NCBI GenBank assembly: GCA_035529555.1
Contig: DATKWL010000116.1
Location: 1-34,666 of the forward strand
Direction: 5' to 3'
DNA length: 34,666 bases
Source of the DNA: Dehalococcoidia bacterium
Lineage (GTDB): Bacteria; Chloroflexota; Dehalococcoidia; SZUA-161
Of this stretch, positions 654-28,738 are shown piece after piece. Made by a program: the position numbers and the translations under genes. Numbering within the stretch: the first letter of the stretch is position 1; every line of letters begins with the position of its first letter. Below the pieces are notes generated by a model. It saw only the letters and a program-made list of their open reading frames with translations. It searched no databases and was not told where the DNA came from.

Positions 654-1085
654 TTAAGCCTCCTGTTTTTCATAAATACCATAACTGACTCCGTAGAGGT
701 TTTCAGCATCAGGCAACTCTACAAATCCACCCCGTATCAATCTCAGCTCTTTTTCATAGGGATTCTCCTTAGGCTTAGTTTTCTTCTCCAGCGTTTGCTT
801 GGTTATATCCTCGATGTAGGCAATCTTCTCTTGATGATTGCCCCTTTCCATCGAGGGAAAGCCGGTGCCAATCAGACACTTGTCGCACCATCCTTCCAGG
901 TAAACCAACTTGTCCCGAACCTCAATCCAGTAGCACAGCACATCCGGCTCATCAAGGTCAGGGACCTGGTCAATAAGCTTTCGTAGCTTGAGCTCGGTGA
1001 TGTCTGTTCCCGGCCATCTCAACTGCAGACCCCTCGGCAGTGGGGGGCCTTCATCTGGTGGCATTGGCAAAAAGCCCTTCAACAC
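654..1085 (-). CDS. hypothetical protein with N-terminal EGPPLPRGLQLRWP motif (143 aa)
   Basis: GTG 1085 is preceded by AGGAGG at 5 nt. The motif is shared with two plus-strand small proteins. Confidence 0.6.
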   Translation of the reverse strand: MLKGFLPMPPDEGPPLPRGLQLRWPGTDITELKLRKLIDQVPDLDEPDVLCYWIEVRDKLVYLEGWCDKCLIGTGFPSMERGNHQEKIAYIEDITKQTLEKKTKPKENPYEKELRLIRGGFVELPDAENLYGVSYGIYEKQEA

Positions 1086-5995: not shown

Positions 5996-6010
5996 CTTCT
6001 ACATCCTCCG

Positions 6011-6061
6011 AAAAAGAAAGGAGCAAGCATTATTTTGCTCGCCCCGTTTTTATCTATTGTA
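6011..6061 (-). promoter_or_regulatory. leader hairpin copy U1 (GGGGCGAGCA/TGCTTGCTCC + U-tract) with upstream TACAAT
   Basis: The minus strand reads TACAAT..AAAAACGGGGCGAGCAAAATAATGCTTGCTCCTTTCTTTTTCGGAGG..ATG(5995). The -35 element is weak. Confidence 0.55.
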
Positions 6062-6075
6062 AGCCCTATCTTTAT

Positions 6076-6753
6076 CTAGGTCTTAATTTCGCTCTTTCTC
6101 CTTTCTATAAATTCCCTGAGCCTTTCCCTGACCTCACTGCAGGTATCGCATTCCTCTTCCGGGATTGACCACAGCCGGCTCATGAACTCCTCGGTAACCT
6201 GGCTTGCCCTGGCCGCCGCCTGCTCCATGGTTTCAACGTCCTTTATGGCGGTGATGGAGTGCCTCAGCTCCCTCGACTGCTTGAGTGTCCAGACTGCGAG
6301 TTCCTTCTCGACTCCCTTGAGTTTGGCGATCTCATCCGGGGCAAGATCGATGCGCTCCATGACATTGAGCTCATCGAGGGCGATGCGGATTCGCCTGGTT
6401 ACCTCCGGCTGTCTGACGCCCTTATCTCGGGCAAACCTTATCCCCTCAGAAAGGGATGAGGAGGTGACAGAGAGATGGTCGCGGGAGCAGGGTAAACACG
6501 CCGTGCCTGCAGATATCGACCCCGGTGATGGGGATATCTCATCTTGACCTGGTGGCGGTTCTTTTAGCGTCTCAGGGGCTGTGGCAGGGGTTGCGGACTC
6601 CTGCAGGCCAAATTTCGCCGCGGCCTGGTCGAACTTATTGGCAACCTTGTCAATAATGTTCAGCCCAGTCTCAATGGCGTCACCCGCCTTGTCGATCACG
6701 GAGAACGCGTCCTCGGGGCGGGGCAATTTAGGCAATCTTGGCATACGAACCAT
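6076..6753 (-). CDS. hypothetical protein, N-terminal MPRLPKLPRPE motif, CLPC and CDTC pairs (225 aa)
   Basis: The track ORF 6076..6807 runs through the leader hairpin. GGGAG lies 8 nt upstream of ATG 6753. Confidence 0.6.
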   Translation of the reverse strand: MVRMPRLPKLPRPEDAFSVIDKAGDAIETGLNIIDKVANKFDQAAAKFGLQESATPATAPETLKEPPPGQDEISPSPGSISAGTACLPCSRDHLSVTSSSLSEGIRFARDKGVRQPEVTRRIRIALDELNVMERIDLAPDEIAKLKGVEKELAVWTLKQSRELRHSITAIKDVETMEQAAARASQVTEEFMSRLWSIPEEECDTCSEVRERLREFIERRKSEIKT

Positions 6754-6772
6754 GTGAGTTACTCCCGTCCTT

Positions 6773-6820
6773 AAAAAAGGGGGCAAGCCCTTCTCAGCGA
6801 AGGTCACCTGCCCCGTTTTT
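6773..6820 (-). terminator. leader/terminator hairpin copy U2
   Basis: The minus strand reads AAAAACGGGGCAGGTGACCTTCGCTGAGAAGGGCTTGCCCCCTTTTTT, directly before the SD of gene 6076..6753. Confidence 0.65.
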
Positions 6821-6842
6821 CCGGTATTTTCCTCCCCACCTT

Positions 6843-6871
6843 ATTATTGTTTCAGAGGAGGGAATTGTCAA
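6843..6871 (-). promoter_or_regulatory. sigma70-like promoter TTGACA-17-AATAAT
   Basis: The -35 element (6866-6871) overlaps the TGA stop of gene 6868..8292. The -10 element is at 6843-6848. Confidence 0.45.
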
Positions 6872-8292
6872 CCCTGGGGTCTGCCACCGAACAAGAGCTC
6901 ATCTTCAAGGTCCTTGGCCTCTCTCTCCAACACGACGGCTTCCTTCAGTCCCTTGGAAATTTTTGCCTTCTCCTGAGGGCTTTTCCTGACTGACTCCCCG
7001 CCACCGGTTAGGCCCATCAGCACTGGTTTTACATCGGACCTGATTCCGGTGACTTGGCTGTCAACGGAGGTCATTGCCTTTTCTAACAGTGCGAAGCGCC
7101 CCTCAAGTCCCCCCCGGTTTGACATATCTTTTCGCAACTCTTCTAGCCCTTTGGCCAGATTGCCCAACGCGCCTTTCACGGCATCCAGTTCTTGCTTCTG
7201 CAGCGAGTCCTTGAGCTCCCGGACCTCCGCCTGCAGCGCTCTCATCGTTTCAGAACCTTCTCCCTCACCCGTTTTTTTCAGCATCCCCAGCTGGTTCAGC
7301 TTGTCCAGCATCTCTATCTGCGTAACTCTTCCTTCCTCCCCGGTCTTTCGCAACAGCCCCAGCTGGTCCAGCTGGGCAAGCAATGCCCCCTCGCCGCCGC
7401 CATCACCCGTTTTTTTCAACATCCCCAGCTGGTTCAGCTTGTCCAGCATCTCTATCTGCGTAGTCCTTCCTTCCTCCCCGGTCTTTCGCAACAGCCCCAG
7501 CGAGTCCAGCTGGGCAAGCAATGCCCCCTCGCCGCCGCCCTCACTCTTTTTGAGCATCCCGAGCTTGTCTAACTTGTCCAGCGTGGTCATTTCATCGTCC
7601 CCTCCTCCTGTCTTGACTCCCATTGCTTCCTTCAAGCGTACTGACGCTTCTTCTCTCCTTGCCAGCTCCTCCACCGGGTCGATTGGCTCTCCCTTCTTGA
7701 GCGAGTCCTGGTACATCTGAAACACGGCAAACTCCCCGAAGCCTATCCTGCCCTTCGGGTTAAGTGTCCACGCGCCCTGCTCACCAACGATGAAGGCGGG
7801 CTCCTTTTTATCTCCGCTCTCCCTCTCCTCTATCTCTGCCAGGTCCTTCTTTACCAGCTTCTGGAGACTCTTGGCTTCGGAGAGGCTGACGGCTTTTTCG
7901 CCTTCTTTGGCCAAGCGTATCATCCCGCTTTCAGGGTCGACGGCATATTTCTCCTCCCCTTCCTCTTCTCTGGTTTCCCTTGTCTTGACGCCAGTCTCCT
8001 TTTCCATTTTCTGCCTTAGCCTTTTGGGGATGGGATGCTGGATTTCATCCGCCCAGAAGTTTACCACCTGCGTGACAAGCGACGGATGGACCCCCATCTC
8101 ACGCATCCTTGCCTCGACATCCTCTAGGTCTTCGAGCTTGCCCTTGGCACAGTGGTCGGCAACCATCGCGGCGTTCTTAATTTTGAATTTTTGGACAATG
8201 GCGGTGAACCTATCCACAATGTTGGTGAAGCTCTCTTCGCCTGTTGGTGCCTCAGCCCCCTCTTTCCCTTTTTCTTCTGTCCCGTTGCTCAT
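6868..8292 (-). CDS. acidic Glu/Lys/Gly-rich protein with tandem 46-aa repeats (474 aa)
   Basis: AAGGAGG lies 10 nt upstream of ATG 8292. Contains an in-frame 138-bp tandem repeat at 7266-7590. Confidence 0.7.
   Translation of the reverse strand: MSNGTEEKGKEGAEAPTGEESFTNIVDRFTAIVQKFKIKNAAMVADHCAKGKLEDLEDVEARMREMGVHPSLVTQVVNFWADEIQHPIPKRLRQKMEKETGVKTRETREEEGEEKYAVDPESGMIRLAKEGEKAVSLSEAKSLQKLVKKDLAEIEERESGDKKEPAFIVGEQGAWTLNPKGRIGFGEFAVFQMYQDSLKKGEPIDPVEELARREEASVRLKEAMGVKTGGGDDEMTTLDKLDKLGMLKKSEGGGEGALLAQLDSLGLLRKTGEEGRTTQIEMLDKLNQLGMLKKTGDGGGEGALLAQLDQLGLLRKTGEEGRVTQIEMLDKLNQLGMLKKTGEGEGSETMRALQAEVRELKDSLQKQELDAVKGALGNLAKGLEELRKDMSNRGGLEGRFALLEKAMTSVDSQVTGIRSDVKPVLMGLTGGGESVRKSPQEKAKISKGLKEAVVLEREAKDLEDELLFGGRPQG
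7266..7590 (-). repeat. 138-bp tandem repeat, 2 full copies plus a partial third, in frame within CDS 6868..8292
   Basis: Copies start at 7266 and 7404 (CACCCGTTTTTTTCA(G/A)CATCCCCAGCTGG...). They are nearly identical over 138 bp. A degenerate third copy starts at 7542. Confidence 0.85.
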
Positions 8293-8862: not shown

Positions 8863-8906
8863 CTCTAATACCTCCATCGCTTTAGCTGGGGGAAGCAACC
8901 CCCGCC

Positions 8907-8954
8907 AAAAAGGAGCGGGTCAAGTTACCTTCTCGGCGAAGGCTGCTTGCCCCG
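8907..8954 (-). terminator. leader hairpin copy U3
   Basis: The minus strand reads AACGGGGCAAGCAGCCTTCGCCGAGAAGGTAACTTGACCCGCTCCTTTTT, between the minus promoter and gene 8611..8862. Confidence 0.55.
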
Positions 8955-8964
8955 TTCTTCTGCC

Positions 8965-8993
8965 TTGACAAGTTGTAAAGTTAGATTTACAAT
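8965..8993 (+). promoter_or_regulatory. sigma70-like promoter TTGACA-17-TACAAT (rightward)
   Basis: -35 at 8965-8970 and -10 at 8988-8993. Confidence 0.6.
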
Positions 8994-9019
8994 ATACCAT
9001 ATGGGACAAAGGCTGTCAA
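8991..9019 (-). promoter_or_regulatory. sigma70-like promoter TTGACA-17-TATATT (leftward)
   Basis: -35 at 9014-9019 and -10 at 8991-8996 (reverse complement). Its -10 overlaps the rightward -10. Confidence 0.6.
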
Positions 9020-9123
9020 GCGTTACTACAGTCAATAGGACAAAGCACTCGTCGGAATTTCGACGGTTGTATGTCCGAAGGGGAGAAAGGGGGGGAATTT
9101 AGCGCTGCATTAAATTAAAAGGT

Positions 9124-9195
9124 AAAAAGGCGGTCAGTTGCTGAAACGAGAGTTTTGGCTGACCGTCTTTTCTCTCTATTCAGTAACTATCCCGC
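9124..9195 (+). repeat. 72-nt leader element copy A (bulged hairpin with GAGA tetraloop + U-tract)
   Basis: 69/72 identical to 20700-20771. Outer stem 9129-37/9159-67, inner stem 9141-47/9152-58, loop GAGA at 9148-51. Confidence 0.8.
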
Positions 9196-9240
9196 ACAAA
9201 AACGGGGCAAGCGAATCAATTGCTTGCCCTTTTCTTTTTT
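9196..9240 (+). terminator. leader hairpin copy (GGGCAAGCGA/TTGCTTGCCC + TTTTCTTTTTT)
   Basis: Stem 9205-14/9220-29, loop ATCAA. One nt different from the hairpin at 16429-16453. Confidence 0.7.
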
Positions 9241-9257
9241 CTGGCAGGAGTGGCGAC

Positions 9258-10064
9258 ATGAGAAAAATCGTAGTGGCTTCCATAAAGGGGGGTGTGGGGA
9301 AAACCACGGTGTCCTCAGGCTTGACACGAAGCCTCAAGAGGCTTGGGTCCAGAGTCGGCTACCTGGATGTGGACATTACCGCACCAACCGGTTCTGAGGC
9401 GTTTGGGCTGGAGAAGCCGCCCGACTGGGAACTGGATGCCGCTGCGGAAGGCGGCAGAGGGGCGATTGTCCCCTATAACGTAGAAGGCATACAGTTCATA
9501 ACACTCGCCTCACACTTCGGGCAAGCACCCGCCGTGCTGTGGAACGAAGAGAAAAAGATAGACGCCGCCAGGCAGCTGCTTCAGGGAGTGGTGGCCTGGC
9601 GGGACCTTGACTGGCTCATCCTGGATACCCCTCCCAGCTCGTCCGGCGAGATGCAAGCTCTTTACAAGTACATCACCGACCTTCACGGTGTGATACTCGT
9701 CTTTCAGCCCACTGACATGGCCGTCGCCGACCTTTATAGGACGCTTGATTTCCTCAAGTTCAAGAAGGTGGCGATACTCGGCCTGATAAGCAACATGAGT
9801 TATTGTATCTCGCCATCTGGGGAGAGGTTCTGGCCCTTCCTGTCGCCTGAGGTAGACCTCGCTGCCATCTGCGAGAATTTTGGGATTCCGCTTCTCGGCG
9901 AGATACCACTCACACCGGACAGAAAGGTGGTCGAGCAAGCATTTGACCGGATTGCCTCAAGGCTGGATGGGGCAAAGCCTGTCATCCTGAAGGAGGATAT
10001 CGCCAAGAGGCTGATCAGGGAAGGAAAAAGGAAGCTTCTGAAAGCGGCAGTAAGGAGACTGTAG
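9258..10064 (+). CDS. Mrp/NBP35 (ApbC)-family P-loop ATPase lacking the CxxC motif (268 aa)
   Basis: Has the deviant Walker A KGGVGKT, plus DVDITAP, LILDTPPSSSGE and LGLISNMSY. The N-terminal ORF extension 9138-9257 covers the leader hairpins and is rejected. Confidence 0.8.
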   Translation: MRKIVVASIKGGVGKTTVSSGLTRSLKRLGSRVGYLDVDITAPTGSEAFGLEKPPDWELDAAAEGGRGAIVPYNVEGIQFITLASHFGQAPAVLWNEEKKIDAARQLLQGVVAWRDLDWLILDTPPSSSGEMQALYKYITDLHGVILVFQPTDMAVADLYRTLDFLKFKKVAILGLISNMSYCISPSGERFWPFLSPEVDLAAICENFGIPLLGEIPLTPDRKVVEQAFDRIASRLDGAKPVILKEDIAKRLIREGKRKLLKAAVRRL

Positions 10065-10066
10065 CC

Positions 10067-10495
10067 ATGCGCACCGAAAAGACACTTGCTGAAGTTCTGA
10101 TTGACTTCGCCCTCGAGGACAAGGTAGCACACCAGGCGGTTATGGCCCAATTGCCCGCCGAGAAGATGGAGGCAATCACCGGCAGAAAAGGGAAACTGAT
10201 TGTCGACGGTGAGGAGGGTGGAGCATTTATCATCAGGATGACACCCTACGGCATCTATAGGGACAATAGCGAATCCGACCTCAGGAACGAGATATGGATG
10301 ACCGATACAACTTTTATCGACATAGTGATTGGGGAGCTTGAGCCGAAGACGGCGAGGGCTAGGGGCCAGGTGCTTTTCAGCGGTGACAGAAGCCTGTATG
10401 ACGCCGCCGAAATCATAGACATCTTTGAGAAGTGGATAATAACGAAGCTGAGGCCGGTTGCCCAAAAGATGATGAAAGCCGTTGGCAAGAGATAG
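10067..10495 (+). CDS. SCP2-like lipid-binding domain protein (142 aa)
   Basis: EIWMTDTTFIDIVIGELEPKTARARGQVLFSGD parallels the SCP2 pattern ([33 protein letters not shown]). AAGGAG SD. Confidence 0.55.
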   Translation: MRTEKTLAEVLIDFALEDKVAHQAVMAQLPAEKMEAITGRKGKLIVDGEEGGAFIIRMTPYGIYRDNSESDLRNEIWMTDTTFIDIVIGELEPKTARARGQVLFSGDRSLYDAAEIIDIFEKWIITKLRPVAQKMMKAVGKR

Positions 10496-10499
10496 CGGA

Positions 10500-10757
10500 A
10501 TGGCTTATGACCCGAATTGCTCGCTTTGCCGGAAAGAGCCGATTAAGGAGCAGCCTTATCATGATGAAATTTGCTGGGTTACATTCTGCCCTCTTCATGG
10601 GAATCCGATGATCGTTCTCAATGAGCATAGGCCGGAACCAACGCCGGAGGAGTGGGAGCACATAAAGGAGGTGAAGAATAAACTGTACCCAAACCTGAAA
10701 TTCAGAGGAGAGGGGATGCACTCTATGCCTCAGCATTTTCATGAACACCTTGTATAG
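10500..10757 (+). CDS. mini HIT-like protein (85 aa)
   Basis: Has an N-terminal CSLC, PMIVLNEHRPE, and a C-terminal HFHEHLV resembling the HxHxHxx histidine triad. The track ORF starts at TTG 10482. Confidence 0.45.
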   Translation: MAYDPNCSLCRKEPIKEQPYHDEICWVTFCPLHGNPMIVLNEHRPEPTPEEWEHIKEVKNKLYPNLKFRGEGMHSMPQHFHEHLV

Positions 10758-10759
10758 AA

Positions 10760-11425
10760 ATGATAGCTGAATTGCCCTTCGTTTTCTTAATCGCCGGGGC
10801 GGCCCTGGTTGGCCTGTGGATATCAAATATCCTCTTTGACCTAAAGGTCCCCCACTACGTCGCGCGTAAAATCGGCCACAGTGCCGGCGGGCTGGGCTTC
10901 CTGCTCTGCGCCCTATTATTTTCATCCGGGTGGTGGTCACTAATATTAGCCGCCATCTTTGCCGTCATGCTCGGGGGTGCCAGGTATGTCAGGCCCCAGA
11001 CTTTTCGTGGCGTGGGCGGCATCGGGCGGCCCGGGGAAGTGATGGCCGAGGTCTGGTTTCCCCTGGCTTCCTTGCCGGTTATCGGCGTGGGCTGGCTCTG
11101 GCTGGACAAGCCTTTGGTAGCCATATCCTGTCTTCTCTTTATGGCCTGGGGGGATATGATTACCGGAATTGTCCGCTCCCAGGTGTACGGCCGGCCAGTG
11201 AAGGGCCTGTGGGGTTCGGTGGCTATGCTCGCCACCTGCCTCGTGATCGCTTTGGCGTTTGTGCAACCGTTCTGGGTCGGGGCCGTGGCTGCCTTGGTGG
11301 CCACGGCTACCGAATGGGCCTGCGGGGATGTTGGGGTCATAAAATGCCTGGACGACAACCTGATGATACCGCTGACCAGCTTTGTCACTGTTTTCGGGAT
11401 ACTGGCTTTGATAGGGGAGCTATGA
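10760..11425 (+). CDS. polyprenol/phytol/dolichol kinase-like integral membrane protein (221 aa)
   Basis: Multi-TM protein. WGDMITGIVRS, KGLWGSVAM and DDNLMIPL match the CTP-dependent polyprenol kinase / CdsA superfamily pattern. Confidence 0.6.
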   Translation: MIAELPFVFLIAGAALVGLWISNILFDLKVPHYVARKIGHSAGGLGFLLCALLFSSGWWSLILAAIFAVMLGGARYVRPQTFRGVGGIGRPGEVMAEVWFPLASLPVIGVGWLWLDKPLVAISCLLFMAWGDMITGIVRSQVYGRPVKGLWGSVAMLATCLVIALAFVQPFWVGAVAALVATATEWACGDVGVIKCLDDNLMIPLTSFVTVFGILALIGEL

Positions 11426-11904
11426 GGGAACTGCTAACATTGCCCAATCCCATACTCAGGAAGAAGTGCCATCCGGTTGGCAACTTCAACAAAGAAATTA
11501 AGGAACTCATAGAAGAGTTGGCTGGTTATATGTATGCCCACCGCACCGATGAAATCGCCCCGATTGGGCTCACGGCCCCGCAACTTGGCGAATCCCTTCA
11601 GGTGATAGTCTTTTACCCCAACCCGGCCTTCCGGGAGAAGAAAGGGATAGAGGAGCTTATCAATCCGGAACTTGTCTATGCCAGAGAATCGATTACAGTT
11701 ACCGAGTCTTGCCTGAGCCTTCCGGGTAAAACATATACTCTCCAACGGGCAAAGCTGGTGAAGGTTCGAGGATACAACTTTGACGGACGCAAGAGGACAT
11801 ACAAAGCCAGGGCGCTCTTTGCCCAAATGTTTCAGCACGAACTAAATCACCTCGATGGCATACTCATAGACAGAATCGGAGAGCTTATCGTATTTAGGAA
11901 GTAG
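11422..11904 (+). CDS. def: peptide deformylase (160 aa)
   Basis: Has the three PDF motifs IGLTAPQLG, ESCLSLPG and QHELNHLDG. ATGA overlap with the upstream stop. The track ORF 10930..11904 is a spurious extension. Confidence 0.85.
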   Translation: MRELLTLPNPILRKKCHPVGNFNKEIKELIEELAGYMYAHRTDEIAPIGLTAPQLGESLQVIVFYPNPAFREKKGIEELINPELVYARESITVTESCLSLPGKTYTLQRAKLVKVRGYNFDGRKRTYKARALFAQMFQHELNHLDGILIDRIGELIVFRK

Positions 11905-11915
11905 AAGGAGAGGCA

Positions 11916-12803
11916 ATGAAAGATAAAATTAAAGCTCACATCGGGCTGGGGCGATTCTTCGCCCTGCCCATAGTTGTCTGCTCCGTCCTGCTTGGCGTTG
12001 CCCTCGTAGGTCACTGGAGCTGGCTATCTGCCATGGTGGCTCTCGGGGCCATATTCCAGATGGCCTATGCACACAGCTTTAACACGCTGCTGGATTTTTC
12101 CTGGACCGGGTTTGACAAGGGTGCTGAAGAGGAGCGGAGCCGAGGTAAGGTCTATACCCATGGCCAGCAGACGATAGCCGCCGGCATAATGTCCCCCAAA
12201 GAGGTGCTGGCCAACGGCCTTGTCTACCTTGCTATATCGGCTGTCTTCATCGGCATTGTCGCCTGGAAGGTATCACCGGTAATATGGATTATCTGGGCGA
12301 CTACAGCCTTGATGACGTTCTGGTATAGCTGGGGGAAGCTTCATTATCAGTGTGAGCTGGCACTGGGTATCGGCTTCGGCTCGCTGGCGGTGATGATGGG
12401 TATGGCCACCCAGCCGAACCCGGATTTCCTGCTGGCTTTTCTGGCGGGGATACCAATATTAATTTTGTTTGGATACGGGGCGGAGACAATGGATCAGTTC
12501 GCCGATGCGAGCGTGAATTGGAAGAGGGGATTGAGAAACTTCGGTGCCCTGGTGTGGAGAAACAAAGTCTCAATTACCATGTTCATCGTCTGGCTGCTTT
12601 GCGCCACCTTTCTCTCCCAGCTGTTTCTCATCGCCGCTGGAGTATTGCATCCGCTGACGGCACTAACACTCATCACCCTCATTCCCTTTTCTTTTTGCCT
12701 TCTCTTCCTGGAGATGAAACCCAAAGTCGGCATCATCTGGGGGCTGGGCGGAATTTATTTATATGGACTGCTACTACTGCTCGGGGAGGTACTTGGACGA
12801 TAA
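11916..12803 (+). CDS. UbiA-superfamily-like membrane prenyltransferase (295 aa)
   Basis: About 8-9 TM segments. Divergent Asp-rich motifs NTLLDFSWTGFD and DQFADASVNWKRG. GAAGGAGAGG SD. Confidence 0.55.
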   Translation: MKDKIKAHIGLGRFFALPIVVCSVLLGVALVGHWSWLSAMVALGAIFQMAYAHSFNTLLDFSWTGFDKGAEEERSRGKVYTHGQQTIAAGIMSPKEVLANGLVYLAISAVFIGIVAWKVSPVIWIIWATTALMTFWYSWGKLHYQCELALGIGFGSLAVMMGMATQPNPDFLLAFLAGIPILILFGYGAETMDQFADASVNWKRGLRNFGALVWRNKVSITMFIVWLLCATFLSQLFLIAAGVLHPLTALTLITLIPFSFCLLFLEMKPKVGIIWGLGGIYLYGLLLLLGEVLGR

Positions 12804-12826
12804 ATCCAAAGGTAAAAATAATATCC

Positions 12827-13849
12827 ATGGGCTATGCTGTCCCCGAGCATAGCTACAGTCAGGAAGAAGTATTCCAGGTGCTCGGGTACCCGCAGCGCTT
12901 CTGGAGGGTGTTCAAAGAGAGTGGGATTGAGAAGAGGCACCTTTGGGTACCGCCATGCGAAGCTAAGGAGATCAGCTGGCAGCAACAGCAGGAGATATAC
13001 AGGGTTGGGGCCGTAAAGCTTTCCCTGCAGGCGGTAAAAGAGTGTCTAGACAGCCGGAGCGCCGAGGATATCGCCTGCGTTGTCTATGGGAGTTGCACAG
13101 GATTTACCCCGGGACCGACGATAGCCCACTACCTGGCCAAAGAGTTATCTCTTGAACCCTCGACCTATTATACGAACATAATCGGGCAGGGATGCGAATC
13201 AGGCTTCCCCGGGCTCCGGAGAGCCTACGATTTTGCTGTAGCCACAGGAAAGCAAGCCCTGGTTGTCAACTGCGAGCTCTGCTCATGCACTTACTATCCC
13301 GAGCCTGCCGGCAGACCGGACCCTGAGAATCATTTTGAATGCTTGAGGAGCAATGCCATCTTTGCCGATGCTGCCTCCTGTGTTCTGGTGGGGTTTGATG
13401 AGAACCTGCGGCATCCTTCTATAATTGACATGGAGACACATACCAATACCGACTTCATCAATGAGCTCGGCTATACCTGGCGGTATGGCCGGCTAAGAGT
13501 TATGTTGTCGCGGCGGGTACCGGAACTGGCGCCACTGGTGGTTAAGCCGGCTGTCAATGCCGTGCTGCAGCGCCAGGGACTAAGTATTGACGACATAAGA
13601 TGGTGGGTGATCCACGCGGCTGGCAGCACAGTCTTGGACAACATAAGGGATGCACTTGGCATAGCCGAGGAAAAGGTAACTCTCTCGAGGGAAACATTGA
13701 GAAATTTTGGCAACACCAGCTCAACCTCGGTCGGCATTACCGGGAAGAGATTGATGGCGGGAGATATCCACCATGGAGATTATGCGGCGGTTTTGAGTAT
13801 CGGACCCGGCATGAGCGGCGGCATGACTCTCTTGCGCTTCGGAGGTTGA
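12827..13849 (+). CDS. type III polyketide synthase (chalcone-synthase-like, 340 aa)
   Basis: Cys-His-Asn triad contexts GQGCESG, WVIHAAGS and FGNTSSTS. The first ATG after the upstream stop is taken as start; the track extension overlaps the UbiA gene. Confidence 0.85.
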   Translation: MGYAVPEHSYSQEEVFQVLGYPQRFWRVFKESGIEKRHLWVPPCEAKEISWQQQQEIYRVGAVKLSLQAVKECLDSRSAEDIACVVYGSCTGFTPGPTIAHYLAKELSLEPSTYYTNIIGQGCESGFPGLRRAYDFAVATGKQALVVNCELCSCTYYPEPAGRPDPENHFECLRSNAIFADAASCVLVGFDENLRHPSIIDMETHTNTDFINELGYTWRYGRLRVMLSRRVPELAPLVVKPAVNAVLQRQGLSIDDIRWWVIHAAGSTVLDNIRDALGIAEEKVTLSRETLRNFGNTSSTSVGITGKRLMAGDIHHGDYAAVLSIGPGMSGGMTLLRFGG

Positions 13850-13850
13850 A

Positions 13851-14291
13851 GTGAGACTGCGAGATGCCCTGGCCAGCTTGCCTGATATAGACCACGAGAT
13901 TATTGACTGGTTGGCTGAAATAAATAGCTACAAGGGAGTATGCACCCTGAACTCATGTGCCGGACACAATAACCACTACAATCAACCATTTGTGATCCTG
14001 GCATTCTCCAAGGGCAGCCCCTTTCACAAGTTCTGCCACGAGATATCACCGGTGAGGTCTGATGTTAGTCCTGTGCTGACTCTGTTTTCTGACAAAGGCT
14101 GGGTAGCAGTATTTCCTCCAACAAAAGATATTAGTGTTGAACAAGGTAGCGGAGTAACACCAGAACGCTTGCCGACTGTTAGAAGGGACCTGTTTGAACG
14201 TATCATAGCAACACTGGAGAAGGTGATAGAAAGGAAGGCGAGTGTGAAGGAGATCGAGCGAAAAATAAAGGTGCTGGGGAGGGGGCTATAA
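13851..14291 (+). CDS. hypothetical protein (146 aa)
   Basis: GTG start with GGAGG 5 nt upstream. No family recognised. Confidence 0.55.
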   Translation: MRLRDALASLPDIDHEIIDWLAEINSYKGVCTLNSCAGHNNHYNQPFVILAFSKGSPFHKFCHEISPVRSDVSPVLTLFSDKGWVAVFPPTKDISVEQGSGVTPERLPTVRRDLFERIIATLEKVIERKASVKEIERKIKVLGRGL

Positions 14292-15224
14292 ATGGCAGTA
14301 TTGGTAACGGGGGGCACCGGGACGCTTGGTCGGGAGCTGGTTCACAATCTAGTCGCCAGAGGGCAAAAGGTAAGGATTCTGGCCAGAGACACTAAGAAGG
14401 CAGAGGAGCTTTTCAGCGGTTTGGAGATACTAAAGGGCAATGTCACCGAGGACAATCTTGGCCTGGTGGCTAATCCCCATGTTGATGCAGTATACCACCT
14501 GGCCGGTTTTCTTGACCTGAGTGAGAAACATCGAGACGACTTGTGGAACGTCAATGTCGCCGGCACGCAAAATGTCATCAAGCTCATGAAACTTTATGAG
14601 ATCCCCCACCTTTATTATTGTTCAACTGCATATACCCAGGGAAGGAACTGCTATGAGGAGACCAAAGCCACGGCCGAGAATTGGGTCAGGGAATCGGGCG
14701 TCAAGTACTCCATCTTTAAGCCCGGCATCATCGTCCCCAACTCCAGAACCTTCGAGATTGATAAGCCACAGCACCTTTATCTGGCGGCCAGGTTATGGGC
14801 CAGGCTCCACCGCCGGGCAGAGCCAATCAGGAAAAAATTAGAGAATAAACTTAATCTACCACCCAAGCAAATTAGCTGCCGGATAAAGGGTAACCCCAGT
14901 GCCACCTTGAACCTAGTTCAGGTTGACTGGATAGCAGAAAAAATGGCCAGCGTCCAGGACGAAGGCGTCTACATGCTCACCAGCCAAAGGCCGCTAAGGG
15001 TTTCTAAACTGCTGGAGTGGCTTGGTGAGGTCCTGTTTCTAAACCTCAAAGTGGAGCCTGAGTTCAAGCTGAGGCCACACGAGGCTTTATTTGACCGCCT
15101 GGCCAAGCCGTTCTTGGACTACGTACAAGATGATTTTTCCCGCTTTAAGCACTCATTCAATGACTGCCCTGCCATCAGCCGGGAATTTATTCAAAAGACA
15201 GTTATCAATAGTATTTTAAATTGA
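14292..15224 (+). CDS. NAD(P)-dependent extended SDR (epimerase/reductase family, 310 aa)
   Basis: VLVTGGTGTLGRELV Rossmann motif and a YEETK (YxxxK) motif. Confidence 0.8.
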   Translation: MAVLVTGGTGTLGRELVHNLVARGQKVRILARDTKKAEELFSGLEILKGNVTEDNLGLVANPHVDAVYHLAGFLDLSEKHRDDLWNVNVAGTQNVIKLMKLYEIPHLYYCSTAYTQGRNCYEETKATAENWVRESGVKYSIFKPGIIVPNSRTFEIDKPQHLYLAARLWARLHRRAEPIRKKLENKLNLPPKQISCRIKGNPSATLNLVQVDWIAEKMASVQDEGVYMLTSQRPLRVSKLLEWLGEVLFLNLKVEPEFKLRPHEALFDRLAKPFLDYVQDDFSRFKHSFNDCPAISREFIQKTVINSILN

Positions 15225-15249
15225 CTAACCCGCCCTAAGGGTTTAGAAT
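15221..15249 (+). promoter_or_regulatory. sigma70-like promoter TTGACT-17-TAGAAT without a downstream hairpin
   Basis: The -35 element overlaps the TGA stop of the SDR gene. The SD and ATG 15272 follow within about 20 nt. Confidence 0.55.
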
Positions 15250-15271: not shown

Positions 15272-15595
15272 ATGGTTATGGGGCAAGGCAAAGGTCTTCT
15301 GTCAGAGCTTGAAAGGAAATTGGGATTACCGCCGCTTTCCCAGGTCGCCGAAACCTTACAGAAATTTCCCGATATGCCAAGGCTGCGCCTGATCAAAAAC
15401 ATCCTTGAGGCCTGCGAGCGCCTTTCTCGCACCGCGCCCGAGCTGGAAAAGATTGTCACCCTGGTCAACCTGATTGCCGATACCCCTACCGATAGGCTGG
15501 AGAAGCTGGAGAAGATCCTGAAGCAGGCAAACAAGCTGGTGGCACATGCCCCGAATGGGCTGCTTGAGTTTCTGTCCTCTTTGAAGGAGGATTGA
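15272..15595 (+). CDS. hypothetical helical protein (107 aa)
   Basis: AAGGAGGGG SD. First gene after the hairpin-less promoter. Confidence 0.6.
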   Translation: MVMGQGKGLLSELERKLGLPPLSQVAETLQKFPDMPRLRLIKNILEACERLSRTAPELEKIVTLVNLIADTPTDRLEKLEKILKQANKLVAHAPNGLLEFLSSLKED

Positions 15596-15804
15596 TGATA
15601 ATAAGCCCTGTATTTGCTTTGATTGTTGCCGCGGTCGGTGCCGTGGGAGCAGTGGCTGGGGCTTCAGCCCTCGCCGTAGGAAGGAAAATAGGGCCGAACC
15701 TAACGCTGGCAGACATGTTGCCTCTCGCACCCTGGGAAGGTCCGCCCTTACCTAGATTCACCAAGACGAAGCCAGAGCTTCTTGCTGAGTTGAAGACGAG
15801 GTGA
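15595..15804 (+). CDS. small membrane protein with WEGPPLPRF motif (69 aa)
   Basis: N-terminal Gly/Ala-rich TM helix. GAAGGAGG SD. TGATG coupling with the upstream stop. Confidence 0.55.
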   Translation: MIISPVFALIVAAVGAVGAVAGASALAVGRKIGPNLTLADMLPLAPWEGPPLPRFTKTKPELLAELKTR

Positions 15805-15809
15805 AAACA

Positions 15810-16013
15810 ATGGTTATTGAAATCAAAACTACAGTAGCTTGCCCTATCTGTTCTGAGCAAATACCCGGTGTAGTAGATAAAATAACAAGAACTGATGTTT
15901 TGATGGGTCATCTTGTCACAGTACATGGAAGCCAAGCAAGACCAGCCACACCATTGGAGGGACCACCCCTGCCCAGAGCGTTAGGTATTCACTGGCCATG
16001 GAGGAAGCCTTGA
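15810..16013 (+). CDS. small zinc-finger-like protein with C-terminal LEGPPLPRALGIHWPW motif (67 aa)
   Basis: Has CPIC...HLVTVH. GAGGTG lies 6 nt upstream of ATG 15810. The track ORF starts at GTG 15801. Confidence 0.5.
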   Translation: MVIEIKTTVACPICSEQIPGVVDKITRTDVLMGHLVTVHGSQARPATPLEGPPLPRALGIHWPWRKP

Positions 16014-16378
16014 TCCTGCAGTTAGTTGAATCTGACAGACCAAAGACGGTCGGTGAGAAAATCGCCGAGTTTCTGGCTCGGCCTCCCCAGCCTGTGCTCA
16101 AGTTTTACGGCGATTTCAGCACTGAGACAGCCGACGGCAAAAGGCACCTGTTCTTCGCGATAAGAAACGGGCTGCCGCTTCCCCTTTTCTATGGAATATA
16201 TGTCAGATCTAGTTATGACGGATTCATAGACTACATGGAGAAGACAGACCATATCGGCCCCTTCAGCACTGACGACTGGCGTCTGACGCTGGACACCACG
16301 GGGCCGGCTCAGGCAGAAATTCGCTTGGGGCTTCTCCCGTTTGAAATTTTAACCGACAAGTCTCAGGTTGCAGTTTAG
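15998..16378 (+). CDS. hypothetical protein (126 aa)
   Basis: ORF overlaps the upstream gene by 16 nt. No clear SD. Confidence 0.5.
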   Translation: MEEALILQLVESDRPKTVGEKIAEFLARPPQPVLKFYGDFSTETADGKRHLFFAIRNGLPLPLFYGIYVRSSYDGFIDYMEKTDHIGPFSTDDWRLTLDTTGPAQAEIRLGLLPFEILTDKSQVAV

Positions 16379-16407
16379 TTGACCTTCTCAAAATTCTAGT
16401 TTACAAT
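16379..16407 (+). promoter_or_regulatory. sigma70-like promoter TTGACC-17-TACAAT
   Basis: Starts immediately after the TAG stop at 16376-78. Confidence 0.6.
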
Positions 16408-16418
16408 TGGTGAAAAGG

Positions 16419-16464
16419 CAGAAAAATGGGGCAAGCAAATCAATTGCTTGCCCTTTTCTTTTTT
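16419..16464 (+). terminator. intrinsic-terminator-like hairpin between promoter and RBS
   Basis: Stem 16429-38/16444-53 (10 bp), loop ATCAA, then TTTTCTTTTTT at 16454-64. Confidence 0.7.
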
Positions 16465-16477
16465 GGTGAGGTTGTAA

Positions 16478-17191: not shown

Positions 17192-19699
17192 ATGGAACGA
17201 GCTGAACTGGCTGACGCACCAGAAATCGCAACGATAGAAATAACAGAACCTCTTCCTGAGAGCGGGGTCGTTGACAGCACCTACAAGATTAAAGGCTCAG
17301 TCAAAATGTTTGATGCCATAGGCGCCCCACCCTGGGTTTACGCCGAGGTTAGGTTAAAGGAGTGGGACAAGCCGGAGGTTGCTGAGGAGGTCAGTTACGA
17401 GCGCGGCTTTCCCATGCCGATAACCGGTGAATTTACCATTGAGTTCAAGCCGGAGAAAGAGGGAGATTACGAAATTACTGTTCTGGCTACCCCAGCACCT
17501 TTATCCCTACCCGTCATCGGGGTATTCCCGGTCACCGGCAAGAGCGATGTAATGAAGGTTGCCGTTGGCGAAAGGCCGCCAGCGGTGTTCAGATTCTCGG
17601 ACGTAACGATTGACGAGAATGATATAGCGCTTACCGACCACGATGCTGATTCCGGATTGCTGCTGGAGAAAACCACGGCCGATTATCTGGACATAACCCC
17701 GGCCTTTGAGTGGACGGGTCCCAGCAAGAAGGCCACTGTAAGCATAAAGGCCGGATACAGGGATTGGCTCGGTGCTTTTAGCCCCAAGACGGGGGCTTAT
17801 ACGCGCACCATTACGCTGCCTGAATCACCTACTACTCCCTATTCCGGCGAACTTGAAAGCCCGATAAGGATTCCACTTACCGCCTGCAGCGGCATTACCG
17901 ATGGCGCCATAGAGATGGTGCTCAAGATAGCCAGGGAGCCCGACTACATCAGTCGTATCTGGAACGTCTACGCCACCAAAGCTCCGCCTGAAGCGTTAGA
18001 CTTCGATTTAACAAGGCCTAGCGTCTCCCAAACCCCCGTAGACCCGGGAACCATCATAGACATCACTTGCCCCATTACCTCGAGGTGCGAGAAGGCGGTT
18101 GATGCCCGTGCCAAGGTCATTATCTATGAGGGGTCAGCTCTTCCCGGTCATGGTAGTAAGATTAAGCAATACGATAGCGATGTGTTCCATATAGAGCCGA
18201 ACGAGAGCACAAATGTCGTTGTCCACCACACGGCAGTCAAGGGCACCATAGACAGGCGGGATGTGGAGGTGGAGGTATACGTTGACACGCAGCTGGTCAA
18301 GGAGAGCGAGTGGGATGACGTGTTCTACGTCGGTGTACCGCCAGAAGAGGTAATCGACTTTAACCTGACAAGACCCACAGTTACTCCAGCGGAAATCGCT
18401 CCGGGAACACCTATCACGATAACGTGCCCGGTGACCTCGGCCTGCACCAAGGAGCAAACGGCCACCGCTCAGGTTAAGATTTATGAAGGCAGTTTTTATG
18501 CCGGCCACGGGACCCTGATAACCACCAAGAATTCACCAGCCTTCTCCATAGCACCAGGCCAGGCTTATAATGTCATCGTTCAACACACCGCTATAGCCGG
18601 CACAATTGACCGTCGTGATGTTGAGGTTGAGATTTATATCGGTGGCAAGCTGGTCAAGGAGAGCGAGTGGGATGATATTTACTATGTAATTATCCCCCCC
18701 CCACCACCCGTGCCTCCCACATCTGATATTAGGAACTTTGACTTTCAGCCAGTGAAGGGCACTTATGATGTTGGAGACAGAGTATCCTATAGTGCCCCCT
18801 ACGAATACAAGGGCAAGGCTCAAGGCGGCTGGCTGACAATCTACCTCGGCACAGGAGTGTATCCCTATTTCTCTATCAAGCATACCTACCCCAGGACTGC
18901 GGTAAGTTTTGGTGAGGCGATGGACTGGACATTGGGCCAATTGTCAGGAAACTTCCTCCTGCCAAGCACACTGGTGCCCGGCCAGACATACAATGTCAGG
19001 GCTAAATTAGAGACTGCTGATGGCAAGCAGATAATTGACACCGACTGGGGAGTGATTACCATCCCCGAGATAACACCGCCTCCACCGCCTGTGCCACCCG
19101 CGGCGGACATCAGGAATCTCGACCTTGTGGCCACCAAGGGCACCTATGACATTGGCGACAGAGTGCCATTCACTTGCAATTATGAATACAAGGGAAAGGC
19201 GCAAGGCGGCCATCTTGTCCTTTCACTGGGCACCGGCGTATATCCAACCTTCAGCACGGTGGTAAACTACTACCCGATGCCAGTCAGCTTCGACGAGGCG
19301 ATGGACTGGACCCGGCGCAGTTTTACGGGAACTTTCCTTTTGACTGAAGCCCTTAATCCCGGGCGGACCTATAACACCAGAGCCAAGCTGGAAACTCTAG
19401 ATGACCGCACGAAGGAAACCGACACCGACTGGGAGGTGGTGAGAATACAGGAAGCGGCACCTCCCGGAGAATATACCGTTTTTGTCCTAGCGCTGCCCCT
19501 TGCTGCCGGATGGGTCACCAAGGAGCCGGATAAGGACTCATACGCTTATGGCGAAACGGTGAAGCTGACCGCCATGAGCGCCCCCGGCTACAAGTTTTCT
19601 TACTGGCAAGTTGACGGCGAGTGGGCGGGCTATAGCAGCACCCTGACCCTCATGGTAACCACGGATCTCGAAGTGAGAGCGTATTATACAAAGGTGTAG
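17192..19699 (+). CDS. large multi-domain repeat protein, candidate virion or surface protein (835 aa)
   Basis: GGGGAGG SD. Has an internal 118-aa repeat x2 (aa 265-501) and a 127-aa repeat x2 (aa 502-755), each B copy preceded by PPPPPVPP. The C-terminal approx 80 aa fit the InlB B-repeat-like pattern (YGETVKLTAMSAPGYKFSYW). No signal peptide. Confidence 0.8.
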   Translation: MERAELADAPEIATIEITEPLPESGVVDSTYKIKGSVKMFDAIGAPPWVYAEVRLKEWDKPEVAEEVSYERGFPMPITGEFTIEFKPEKEGDYEITVLATPAPLSLPVIGVFPVTGKSDVMKVAVGERPPAVFRFSDVTIDENDIALTDHDADSGLLLEKTTADYLDITPAFEWTGPSKKATVSIKAGYRDWLGAFSPKTGAYTRTITLPESPTTPYSGELESPIRIPLTACSGITDGAIEMVLKIAREPDYISRIWNVYATKAPPEALDFDLTRPSVSQTPVDPGTIIDITCPITSRCEKAVDARAKVIIYEGSALPGHGSKIKQYDSDVFHIEPNESTNVVVHHTAVKGTIDRRDVEVEVYVDTQLVKESEWDDVFYVGVPPEEVIDFNLTRPTVTPAEIAPGTPITITCPVTSACTKEQTATAQVKIYEGSFYAGHGTLITTKNSPAFSIAPGQAYNVIVQHTAIAGTIDRRDVEVEIYIGGKLVKESEWDDIYYVIIPPPPPVPPTSDIRNFDFQPVKGTYDVGDRVSYSAPYEYKGKAQGGWLTIYLGTGVYPYFSIKHTYPRTAVSFGEAMDWTLGQLSGNFLLPSTLVPGQTYNVRAKLETADGKQIIDTDWGVITIPEITPPPPPVPPAADIRNLDLVATKGTYDIGDRVPFTCNYEYKGKAQGGHLVLSLGTGVYPTFSTVVNYYPMPVSFDEAMDWTRRSFTGTFLLTEALNPGRTYNTRAKLETLDDRTKETDTDWEVVRIQEAAPPGEYTVFVLALPLAAGWVTKEPDKDSYAYGETVKLTAMSAPGYKFSYWQVDGEWAGYSSTLTLMVTTDLEVRAYYTKV

Positions 19700-20658: not shown

Positions 20659-20688
20659 TTGACAAATTTCTGTCCCTGTGTTTAGAAT
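20659..20688 (+). promoter_or_regulatory. sigma70-like promoter TTGACA-18-TAGAAT with an AT-rich upstream tract
   Basis: -35 at 20659-64 and -10 at 20683-88. The sequence AAAAATAAACTAAATAAAAAC lies upstream. Confidence 0.6.
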
Positions 20689-20699
20689 TGTAGCGGGAT

Positions 20700-20771
20700 A
20701 AAAAGGCGGTCAGTTGCTGAGACGAGAGTTTTGGCTGACCGCCTTTTCTCTTTATTCAGTAACTATCCCGC
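20700..20771 (+). repeat. 72-nt leader element copy B
   Basis: Outer stem 20705-13/20735-43, inner stem 20717-23/20728-34, loop GAGA at 20724-27, followed by TTTTCTCTTT. Confidence 0.8.
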
Positions 20772-20777
20772 CCGCTC

Positions 20778-20835
20778 AAAAACGGGGCAAGCAACCTTCC
20801 CCGGAAGGTTTGAACGGCTTGCCCCGTTCCTTTTT
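20778..20835 (+). terminator. leader hairpin copy (CGGGGCAAGC ... GCTTGCCCCG with inner ACCTTC/GAAGGT stem + U-tract)
   Basis: Outer stem 20783-92/20817-26, followed by TTCCTTTTT. Confidence 0.65.
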
Positions 20836-20872
20836 GGTGAGGGTTGCTTCCCCAGAGTAAAAGGAGGGTGAC

Positions 20873-28725: not shown

Positions 28726-28738
28726 AGAAGGTGGGGCC

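Follow-up and report, generated by a model that had tools for sequence, protein, structure and literature searches.

The window analysed here is the whole 34,666-nt stretch of contig DATKWL010000116.1 (assembly GCA_035529555.1), treated as part of an uncultured virus-like element with a bacterial host, as judged by its sigma-70 promoters and GGAGG-type Shine-Dalgarno sequences (SDs). Six gene leaders in the window contain hairpins with a common consensus stem, GGGGCRAGC/GCTYGCCCC, and these hairpins appear to be the local copies of a lineage-specific RNA module placed in the 5' leader of nearly every transcription unit. Their anatomy suggests promoter-proximal intrinsic terminators (attenuators) or insulators, carried in a copy-and-paste cassette of promoter, hairpin and ribosome-binding site (RBS). 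This is the reading preferred here, tentatively and with a confidence just short of evenly balanced, termination being predicted from sequence. The hairpins are best filed as a variant of the known promoter-plus-hairpin cassettes, more extensive than an earlier note on the same DNA had seen.

Six hairpins with a common stem

The earlier note had described six hairpin copies, each flanked by a 5' A-tract and a 3' U-tract. All of them were found, with coordinates that agree within 1-3 nt, and the two flanking tracts were seen in six of six. On the sense strand every copy reads A-tract, (C)GGGGCRAGC, loop, GCTYGCCCY and T-tract; the stems are 9-11 bp long, GC-rich and begin with GGGG/CCCC. Two subtypes, also described before, were recovered: a simple form (A, D and E) and a composite form with an outer stem and an inner CCTTC/GAAGG stem (B, C and F). 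The copies and their flanks are as follows.

6020-6045, minus: hairpin A, simple, GGGGCGAGC-aaaataat-GCTTGCTCC; -16.9 kcal/mol, terminator score positive in sense
6046-6052 (A-tract), 6010-6019 (T-tract), 6005-6009 (SD GGAGG) and 5995 (ATG), minus: flanks of hairpin A
6780-6814, minus: hairpin B, composite, outer stem GGGGCAGGT/GCTTGCCCC with two G.U pairs, inner stem CCTTC/GAAGG; -28.8 kcal/mol with flanks
6773-6779 (T-tract), 6762-6770 (SD) and 6753 (ATG), minus: flanks of hairpin B
8916-8954, minus: hairpin C, composite, CGGGGCAAG...CTTGACCCG with one G/A mismatch, inner stem CCTTC/GAAGG
9204-9230, plus: hairpin D, simple, GGGGCAAGCga-atcaa-ttGCTTGCCCT
9231-9241 (T-tract), 9243-9250 (SD GGCAGGAG) and 9258 (ATG), plus: flanks of hairpin D
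16428-16454, plus: hairpin E, simple, GGGGCAAGCaa-atcaa-ttGCTTGCCCT, 20 nt past the -10
16455-16464 (T-tract), then SD GGTGAGG and ATG at 16478, plus: flanks of hairpin E
20784-20825, plus: hairpin F, composite, GGGGCAAGC...GCTTGCCCC, inner stem CCTTCC/GGAAGG with a GAACGG extension
20861-20867 (SD AAGGAGG) and 20873 (ATG), plus: downstream signals of leader F

In A, B, D and E there is an SD right behind the T-tract, and in C and F it lies about 30 nt further on, in agreement with the earlier description. The statement that deviations in the stems are mostly G.U stands for the G.U pairs themselves and has to be amended for hairpin C, which carries the G/A mismatch listed above. Hairpin A is located 30 nt past the stop codon of gene 6076-6753 and is accompanied in relatives by the block TAGATAAAGATAGGGCTTACAATAGATAAAAAC. 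The heptamer TTGGTGA brackets the cassette of hairpin E (16408-16414 and 16464-16470).

The exact 9-mer GGGGCAAGC occurs six times in the window against 0.66 expected, a count that none of 100 shuffled sequences reached; with one mismatch allowed, there were 26 matches against 13.5 expected. Hairpins A, B, D and E are predicted to fold as drawn (window-energy z-scores of -3.4 to -5.8). For the windows of C and F (z -3.2 and -3.8), the predicted fold is an alternative long helix instead of the hairpin.

Selection on the stem at the RNA level

Across the relatives of the element, 95 family loci with a total of 540 kb (cited below by L numbers) contained 51 unique hairpins of the shared-stem type, each with an A-tract and a T-tract and with a start codon at a median of 25 nt downstream. 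When the stems were read in the orientation of the gene, 44 G.U pairs were counted against 2 A.C. At one stem position the family contains A-U 25 times, G.U 13 times, and G-C and U-A 3 times each. Changes on both sides were observed at 7 of the 10 stem pairs, and the observed values were reached in none of 500 shuffles. Compensatory changes can be seen in orthologous leaders, such as GGGGCGAGC/GCTCGCCCC in leader F of L252 and GGGGTAAGC/GCTTACCCC in L295. This pattern of substitution shows a module whose hairpin is evidently under selection in the RNA of the sense strand.

Seven stem positions, 2-5 and 7-9, hardly vary (41-43 of 44) between sites, even among genomes with proteins that share only 50-80% identity, and the loops range from 5 to 26 nt in length. 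A dimeric DNA operator was ruled out by this arm spacing of 5-26 nt together with the strand-specific G.U pairs. A bidirectional terminator is a weak candidate: the antisense terminator scores are all negative, and A.C mismatches are frequent in the antisense orientation.

Fixed order of promoter, hairpin and gene

Near-consensus sigma-70-type promoters (10-11 of 12 positions) are located 20-94 nt ahead of hairpins B, C, E and F. The strong promoters of the window and one weaker hexamer are listed here.

6843-6871, minus: P_B, TTGACA-17-AATAAT, 11/12, overlapping the stop codon of gene 6868-8292
8991-9019, minus: P_C, TTGACA-17-TATATT, 11/12, with TG before the -10; back to back with P_D and overlapping it
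8965-8993, plus: P_D, TTGACA-17-TACAAT, 11/12, at the start of the ~260-nt leader of the ParA/Mrp-like gene
16379-16407, plus: P_E, TTGACC-17-TACAAT, 10/12, beginning 1 nt past the stop of gene 15998-16378
20659-20688, plus: P_F, TTGACA-18-TAGAAT, 11/12
15221-15249, plus: promoter without a hairpin, TTGACT-17-TAGAAT, with SD and ATG directly after it
6056-6061, minus: TACAAT, a -10-like hexamer 10 nt 5' of hairpin A, with a poor -35

The earlier note had recognized a -10 at five of the six copies and a TTGACA -35 at most. That holds for B, C, E and F, with at least 10 of 12 positions each; there is none near D, and A has the TACAAT with its poor -35. The -10 of P_B ends 28 nt ahead of hairpin B, and P_D lies 210 nt 5' of hairpin D with another shared hairpin module in between. 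Five of the six strong intergenic promoters of the window have a hairpin downstream; the sole one without, at 15221-15249, has a hairpin at its orthologous site in L249.

The same arrangement was found throughout the family. Promoters of at least 10/12 were located within 100 nt upstream of 29 of 48 hairpins and within 100 nt downstream of none of the 48, against a background of 1.4% per 100-nt window. The gap from the end of the -10 to the stem is 9-44 nt among relatives, and larger where the module described below, hairpin 1, precedes. At site B, upstream of the gene for a conserved 225-aa protein, nearly all of ~43 classified orthologous regions have a promoter that overlaps the upstream stop codon and scores 9-11/12 (mostly 10-11). 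The order in the family is always promoter, hairpin, gene. Hairpins C and D lie in the leaders of divergent back-to-back promoters with no transcription unit upstream, so each of them must act on its own transcript.

The region between these two leaders is worth recording in its own right. The two 11/12 promoters overlap at 8965-9019, the sign of the GC skew changes at ~9000, and a partly symmetric sequence, CCTTGACAAG ... GCTGTCAAGC, is present; the region is a candidate control region or replication origin.

A second shared module in leaders D and F

Leaders D and F share a further module of 73 nt, 96% identical between the two copies, which contains a separate hairpin (hairpin 1).

9123-9195, plus: module in leader D; hairpin 1 GGCGGTCAG (9129-9137)/CTGACCGTC (9159-9167)
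20699-20771, plus: module in leader F; hairpin 1 GGCGGTCAG (20705-20713)/CTGACCGCC (20735-20743)
L249:9163-9237, L252:9113-9183, L270:207-278 (minus) and L335:323-391 (minus): the module in relatives

In leader D, hairpin 1 has the conserved loop TTGCTGAA..GTTTTGG and a TTTTCT tail. Its 9-bp stem has a compensatory variant in relatives, GGCGGGTAG/CTACCCGCC in place of GGCGGTCAG/CTGACCGCC, and its loop of ~21-23 nt has conserved ends (UUGCUGAA...GUUUUGG) followed by UUUUCUCU. Folds of the module also permit a long alternative hairpin, AGUUGCUGAA/UUCAGUAACU, with GAGAG/CUCUC. As far as its conservation goes, the module could be a protein- or RNA-binding leader element. A leader peptide was ruled out for it, because indels in the relatives break the reading frame.

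An alternative helix in leaders C and F

The post-hairpin motif that the earlier note had seen to be common to C and F is 51 nt long with 78% identity, and it takes part in a second structure. In the minimum-energy fold of both leaders, the 5' arm and inner stem of the hairpin are paired with the U-tract and the post-hairpin motif, which together form a distal arm.

8889-8913, minus: distal arm of leader C, CCTTTTTGGCGGGGGTTGCTTCCCC, consisting of the T-tract and the post-hairpin motif
20829-20853, plus: distal arm of leader F, CCTTTTTGGTGAGGGTTGCTTCCCC, with which the 5' arm of hairpin F can pair instead

In leader C the distal arm pairs over ~25 bp with the 5' arm and inner stem, and this conformer is called ALT below. 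Both pairings are conserved in an alignment of 13 leaders of the C/F type: 90% of the cells are paired for the terminator, and 86% are paired over 25 pairs for the ALT helix, of which 7 are changed on both sides, far above slid controls. The RNAalifold consensus of the 13 leaders is the alternative helix. The distal arm tracks clade-specific stem variants, with GCACCCC in L320 and GCUGCCCC in L267, and ALT is 7-16 kcal/mol more stable than the terminator.

The partner strand of ALT is transcribed after the terminator; the helix therefore cannot serve in kinetic antitermination and would form only in read-through transcripts. In such transcripts the leader would refold, the 5' arm exchanging its proximal 3' arm for the distal one to give a helix of ~20-25 bp just upstream of the SD. 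Sequestration of the SD by a switch between the terminator and ALT was ruled out, since SD accessibility is equal in both conformers. The helix might be an mRNA or 5' stabilizer or a processing site of the RNase III type, both of which are guesses.

Optional presence, copying and concerted evolution

At site B, ~21 of the ~43 classified regions contain the hairpin and ~22 do not, with the promoter retained in both; the filled and empty states are interleaved along the ranking by protein identity. The empty allele reads -10, AAGGCAGGAGG, 7 nt, ATG, and the filled allele reads -10, AAGGCAGGAG, an insert of AAAAATAACAGAAAAAC, hairpin and GTTCCTTTTT, then GCAGGAGG, 7 nt, ATG. Compared in this way, the filled allele has an insert of ~80 nt between direct repeats of 7-8 bp (GCAGGAG). 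The repeats at B and E are compatible with an insertion that duplicated its target and also with a palindrome lost repeatedly by precise deletion between its flanking repeats.

Sites C and D are both present in 11 genomes and both missing in 2. In L284, compact leaders of -10, SD and ATG without a hairpin were found at B, C and D, the three sites covered, and the more distant relatives L337, L339 and L340 are without leader hairpins. The hairpin is optional at any given promoter.

Whole hairpins recur at different sites. Between copies D and E, a stretch of 47 nt that includes the loop is 94% identical. A hairpin with a gccgtaaggc loop occupies a D-type site in L286, and L287 and L288 have it at B-type sites; the long ttcgctgagaagg..gaacgg loop occurs in L277 at sites C and B, and elsewhere at F sites. 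Rare stem variants also recur at separate leaders of one genome, such as GGGGTAAGC in L295 and GGGGGTGC in L320/L321; in the clade L297-L311 the variant GGGGGCGC is present under both simple and composite loops. The occurrence of whole hairpins at non-orthologous sites, together with rare stem variants that extend through a genome, implies that the module evolves in concert, and the comparisons show hairpins that have apparently been copied or homogenized between leaders. The suggestion of a recent duplication of one regulatory cassette can thus be kept in part. Copying between leaders is well supported, but a single recent event is not: the same stem occurs in relatives with proteins only 50-80% identical, so the module must be older than one recent duplication. 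We infer that the shared stem results mainly from common descent and repeated copying or gene conversion between leaders, rather than from a need for the exact sequence.

Specificity of the motif

Searched over the entire window on both strands, Rfam gave no covariance-model match at E <= 1. The extended motif AAACGGGGCRAGC-N3-30-GCTYGCCCYKTT was found in only 2 of 2.9 million IMG/VR contigs, one belonging to the family and one in which the match is an unrelated terminator on the 3' side of a tRNA gene. The remaining strict terminator-like hairpins of the family loci have diverse, unrelated stems and do not stand behind promoters. On these sequence comparisons, the RNA motif family appears to be new to Rfam and to constitute a lineage-specific leader module.

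That the six hairpins resemble each other by chance, as ordinary host-type terminators would, is barely credible: the loose 17-nt pattern GGGGCAAGC-N3-30-GCTTGCCC, sought in viral and genome collections, does match scattered single sites in all phyla among the matches listed, and even the extended motif is fitted by the terminator beside the tRNA gene, but the excess of the exact 9-mer, the fixed context of the 51 copies in relatives and the unrelated stems of the other terminators in the same elements contradict this explanation already within the family.

Possible functions of the hairpins

Under the attenuator reading, the GC-rich stem with its upstream A-tract and downstream U-tract would form an intrinsic terminator close to the promoter and lower the output of the strong promoter ahead of it. 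Where the promoter overlaps the end of the upstream gene (in B, E and F, and with a weak promoter also in A), the hairpin would also insulate the unit from read-through. Promoter, hairpin and RBS together would then make a portable expression cassette. A terminator scan flagged A, D and E as terminator-like, and these three were positive in sense by an approximate terminator score (the d'Aubenton-Carafa formula with ViennaRNA energies), every copy being negative in antisense. All three have a short loop and an uninterrupted U-tract directly after the stem.

Several observations weigh against this reading. Hairpins B, C and F are long, with composite loops, and have negative classical terminator scores; B has a good U-tract, and the tails of C and F are interrupted, beginning with GCUCC or GUUCC before UUUUU. 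The U-tract has other possible partners, either the A-tract or, in ALT, the purine-rich inner stem. To place a strong terminator right after a strong promoter would be wasteful without some means of relief, and Pfam, PHROGs and PDB searches of the window proteins recovered no antiterminator, RNA-binding protein or transposase. The percentage of paired positions among the family hairpins is inflated by ascertainment, pairing having been required when they were gathered. Finally, the stems are near-invariant despite different loops within one genome, which leaves room for a factor that reads their sequence, and within clades the stems co-vary under unlike loops, for which copying by itself cannot fully account.

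Five other explanations have been considered, including the chance similarity dismissed above. The first three of them, taken next, are not strictly exclusive of attenuation.

A stabilizer or translation module of the 5' untranslated region is a rather unlikely alternative but deserves attention. In this case the hairpin at the 5' end of the mRNA, extended by the A- and U-tracts or replaced by ALT in C and F, would block decay that depends on the 5' end rather than terminate transcription, and the U-rich stretch and SD would promote the loading of ribosomes. One class of sites begins 9-12 nt past the -10, essentially at the 5' end of the transcript; the A-tract pairs with the U-tract in predicted folds; and in C and F the favored and conserved structure is the helix of 20-25 bp directly upstream of the SD, not the terminator. 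The universal order of promoter and then hairpin agrees with this role, as does the SD-like AAGGCAGGAG at the beginning of B-type leaders, a feature that recalls stabilizers of the STAB-SD type. However, many sites are located 20-44 nt from the -10 and would give the mRNA a long unpaired 5' tail, A, D and E have textbook terminator anatomy (11-bp GC-rich stem, 5-nt loop, UUUUCUUUUUU), and the equal SD accessibility in the two conformers does not help a translational role.

The near-invariance of stem positions 2-5 and 7-9 leads to a second alternative, in line with the recognition by a specific protein or RNA that the earlier note had suggested, in which a protein or RNA encoded by the element or its host reads the conserved stem or 5' arm and switches all operons together, for example by blocking formation of the hairpin (antitermination) or by stabilizing it. 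The clade variants GGGGGCGC, GGGGGTGC and GGGGTAAGC, which recur under different loops at the leaders of one genome and are followed in L320 by the GCACCCC of the distal arm, are in line with such a regulon site, and so are the joint occurrence of sites C and D and the conserved loop of hairpin 1 in leaders D and F. Loops of 5-26 nt, however, make a loop-reading protein of the lambda N-boxB type unlikely, and the variable spacing of the arms disfavors a dimeric DNA operator. RNA-binding or antiterminator domains were not detected in the window proteins, and individual promoters, as well as the three covered sites of L284, manage without the hairpin. We regard a regulon site of this kind as quite unlikely. 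A broader proposal is that the hairpins are the cis-sites of an undescribed genome-wide leader control, with one attenuator RNA at the head of every operon, a lineage-specific trans factor, either a protein or a small RNA that co-evolves with the stem, that opens or locks all of them, and C and F as bistable riboregulators that alternate between a terminator hairpin and the helix of ~25 bp. It would account for the invariant stems with drifting loops, the variant stems that change in step (distal arm included) and the co-occurrence of C and D; it is doubtful at present.

A mobile palindrome of the MITE or REP kind, inserting between the -10 and the SD with target duplication and having regulatory effects only secondarily, is improbable. 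It would explain the insert of ~80 nt with its GCAGGAG repeat in filled B alleles, the TTGGTGA on both sides of E, the interleaved presence and absence at site B and the entire hairpins at non-orthologous sites. The insert ends differ between B and E, however, and the repeats are SD-like purine runs that may have been selected or may have arisen by chance; recurrent precise deletion between them would give the same pattern. Neither a transposase nor an HUH/RAYT protein was found in the window, no copies are located outside leader positions, and the extended motif is confined in IMG/VR to the family, apart from one chance terminator match.

Recombination cassettes like the promoter-early stem-loops (PeSLs) of T4-type phages, which would provide crossover points for the shuffling of accessory genes, have only a very slim chance of being the explanation. 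A repeated strong sigma-70-type promoter with a terminator-like stem-loop does fit the description of PeSLs (PMC2839356), and the gene downstream of hairpin A differs among relatives. The gene mosaic downstream of gene 6076-6753 varies among relatives and is bordered only by hairpin A; its shuffled block of small genes has no hairpins at the junctions, and shuffling as the main role was rejected on this ground. In addition, the hairpins are placed at the starts of conserved core operons, 9-44 nt past the -10 rather than between the -35 and -10 or over the -10, and indel breakpoints inside the cassettes are already largely lacking.

Comparison with known systems

PeSLs, described in the T4-type phages RB49 and phi1 (Arbiol et al. 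2010, PMC2839356; Comeau et al. 2014, PMC4122927), are the closest system in kind. In both cases, small repeated cassettes that combine a strong promoter of the sigma-70 type, a terminator-like stem-loop and an SD serve many genes of one virus, and the copies are similar in sequence, with copying and recombination among them. The PeSL stem-loop, however, is mostly located between the -35 and -10 or over the -10 (PMC2839356), whereas the hairpins described here belong to the transcribed leader. PeSLs are found beside ORFans in hyperplastic regions, at indel junctions, whereas the present hairpins head conserved core operons, and the T4-type phages are a different, unrelated group of viruses. 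A stem-loop with the PeSL-type arrangement, and not the leader arrangement, was observed in the distant relatives L339 (5720-5830) and L340 (5574-5690), where a CCCCCC...GGGGGG stem lies across the spacer and -10 of a strong promoter.

The ESAS/SAS repeats of Cluster K mycobacteriophages (Pope et al. 2011, PMC3203893) are likewise inverted repeats, imperfect and with a spacer of variable length, and lie just upstream of the RBS in a subset of genes. They too are oriented with transcription, present or absent gene by gene and endowed with a consensus specific to the sub-lineage, although the sequences are unrelated. ESAS are missing from the host genome and their function is unknown; the authors found little support for RNA hairpins (PMC3203893), whereas G.U asymmetry and compensatory changes were observed here. 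The A- and U-tract flanks of terminator anatomy and the strong promoter directly upstream are further differences, and the 13-bp SAS, GGGATAGGAGCCC, has no equivalent in the present leaders beyond the recurrent SD GGCAGGAGG.

A functional analogy, and only that, can be drawn with the lambdoid phages. Their promoter-proximal terminators are relieved by antitermination, as in lambda PR'-tR' with Q, the boxB of nutL and nutR with N, and the put RNAs of HK022. As here, a terminator soon follows a strong constitutive promoter, and near-identical leader hairpins are located on divergent operons (nutL/nutR). However, a Q-, N- or put-like component was not identified in the present case. BoxB is read through its conserved loop, whereas here the stems are conserved and the loops vary (ATCAA-type, AAAATAAT and inner stem-loops); the loops do not have the features of a nut site with boxA and boxB, a boxA-like element not having been specifically searched for. 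Six or more sites per genome are present here, compared with one or two, and the hairpins carry the U-tract themselves.

Intergenic palindromes of the REP/BIME and MITE-like classes, such as REP with RAYT transposases and the Correia elements, are also short and imperfect, exist in many copies of shared sequence and are able to act as terminators or mRNA stabilizers. Polymorphism of presence and absence is a further likeness, here with short flanking direct repeats. The copies described here differ in being limited to the leaders between promoter and SD in one virus-like family, and a transposase was not found.

Leaders with a terminator and an antiterminator, such as attenuators and riboswitch platforms, resemble C and F in having two exclusive conserved pairings that share one strand, one of them a terminator. 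They differ in the position of the alternative partner, which lies downstream of the terminator here; moreover, no aptamer or leader peptide was recognized, and Rfam gave no match at the threshold stated above.

If the attenuator reading holds, the element would provide a compact natural example of modular expression cassettes (promoter, leader terminator hairpin and RBS), and one structured RNA module would have spread to nearly all operons of a virus-like element and been kept uniform. Almost all proteins of the element lack known relatives, and it occurs widely in metagenomes of sediment and the subsurface. The filled and empty alleles found in nature make the function of the hairpin directly testable and may offer a handle on how such elements time or balance transcription. 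The family also adds a data point on the spread and concerted evolution of regulatory hairpins, which bears on the function of the mycobacteriophage ESAS and the T4-like PeSLs. Interest in the leader hairpins would grow if a trans-acting factor or a bistable switch were demonstrated.

The window and the virus-like family

The genes of the window run leftward from ~8900 and rightward from ~9250, starting from the back-to-back promoters where the GC skew flips its sign. Most of the proteins have no match in Pfam or PHROGs, and sequence searches of the PDB also gave almost nothing. Domain searches recovered a ParA/Mrp-like ATPase, a small winged helix-turn-helix regulator and an InlB-type repeat. 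A UbiA-type prenyltransferase, a type III polyketide synthase, an epimerase and a variable sugar-nucleotide block were named by eye from the translations and from the Pfam labels of homologues in relatives, and a peptide deformylase was assigned by eye only. When 24 kb of the window were compared by megablast with phage and plasmid records, no match was returned.

Two core proteins, of 252 aa (21551-22309) and 225 aa (6076-6753), each have more than 100 homologues, all of them metagenomic (sediment, subsurface and soil); two of these homologues were binned as Dehalococcoidales. A search of IMG/VR with the 252-aa protein alone gave nothing, and the family member L050/L335, a viral contig of 44.9 kb in that database, surfaced only through the DNA motif. 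Other relatives are located on contigs of 78-98 kb, and gene order is kept among the family loci. To judge from these sequences, the family of the window is a metagenome-only, virus-like one.

The window ends within a gene at 34.7 kb and is therefore partial. L339 and L340, contigs of 77,883 and 78,969 bp from separate metagenome samples, are nearly equal in length; the recurrence of ~78 kb suggests a complete genome size for one branch of the family.

The other proteins and repeats observed in the window are the following.

21551-22309, plus: 252-aa core protein with >120 homologues, metagenome-only
6076-6753, minus: 225-aa protein downstream of hairpin B, the best-conserved core protein
17192-19699, plus: 835-aa protein with three internal repeats of ~380 nt (18291-19438) and a C-terminal InlB-type B-repeat
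6868-8292, minus: gene for a 474-aa product without known relatives
7257-7582, minus: tandem 138-nt (2 x 69-nt) repeats in gene 6868-8292, encoding repeated LDKLNQLGMLKKTGEGG-like units
654-1085 (minus), 15592-15804 (plus) and 15801-16013 (plus): sites of the (D/E)EGPPLPR peptide, also present in L268 downstream of the 225-aa gene
9258-15224 and 24467-33800, plus: ParA/Mrp-like ATPase, peptide deformylase, UbiA prenyltransferase, type III polyketide synthase, epimerase and the large sugar-nucleotide and glycosyltransferase block

The structure model of the 252-aa protein is confident (pLDDT 88) and consists of a beta-sandwich with N-terminal helices. Its comparison with known structures gave weak matches of the jelly-roll type, with TM scores below 0.3 (IBDV VP2, the SPV1 capsid protein and carbohydrate-binding modules). 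A capsid protein was not called on matches of this strength; according to the model, the protein may be a structural protein of a new kind. The 225-aa protein is without a match in Pfam, PHROGs and the PDB. Its invariant motifs, GTAC(L/I)PC(S/C)RDH and EEC.TC, contain four cysteines, which suggests metal binding.

Relatives of the 835-aa protein range from 805 to 913 aa, as is expected of a surface or adhesion protein. The content of the large sugar-nucleotide and glycosyltransferase block varies among relatives, as seen in a comparison of L249, L252 and L253. The peptide (D/E)EGPPLPR, followed by a basic or aromatic stretch such as GLQLRWP or ALGIHWPW, recurs in several small proteins of the element that are not otherwise related and may represent a shared targeting or interaction peptide.

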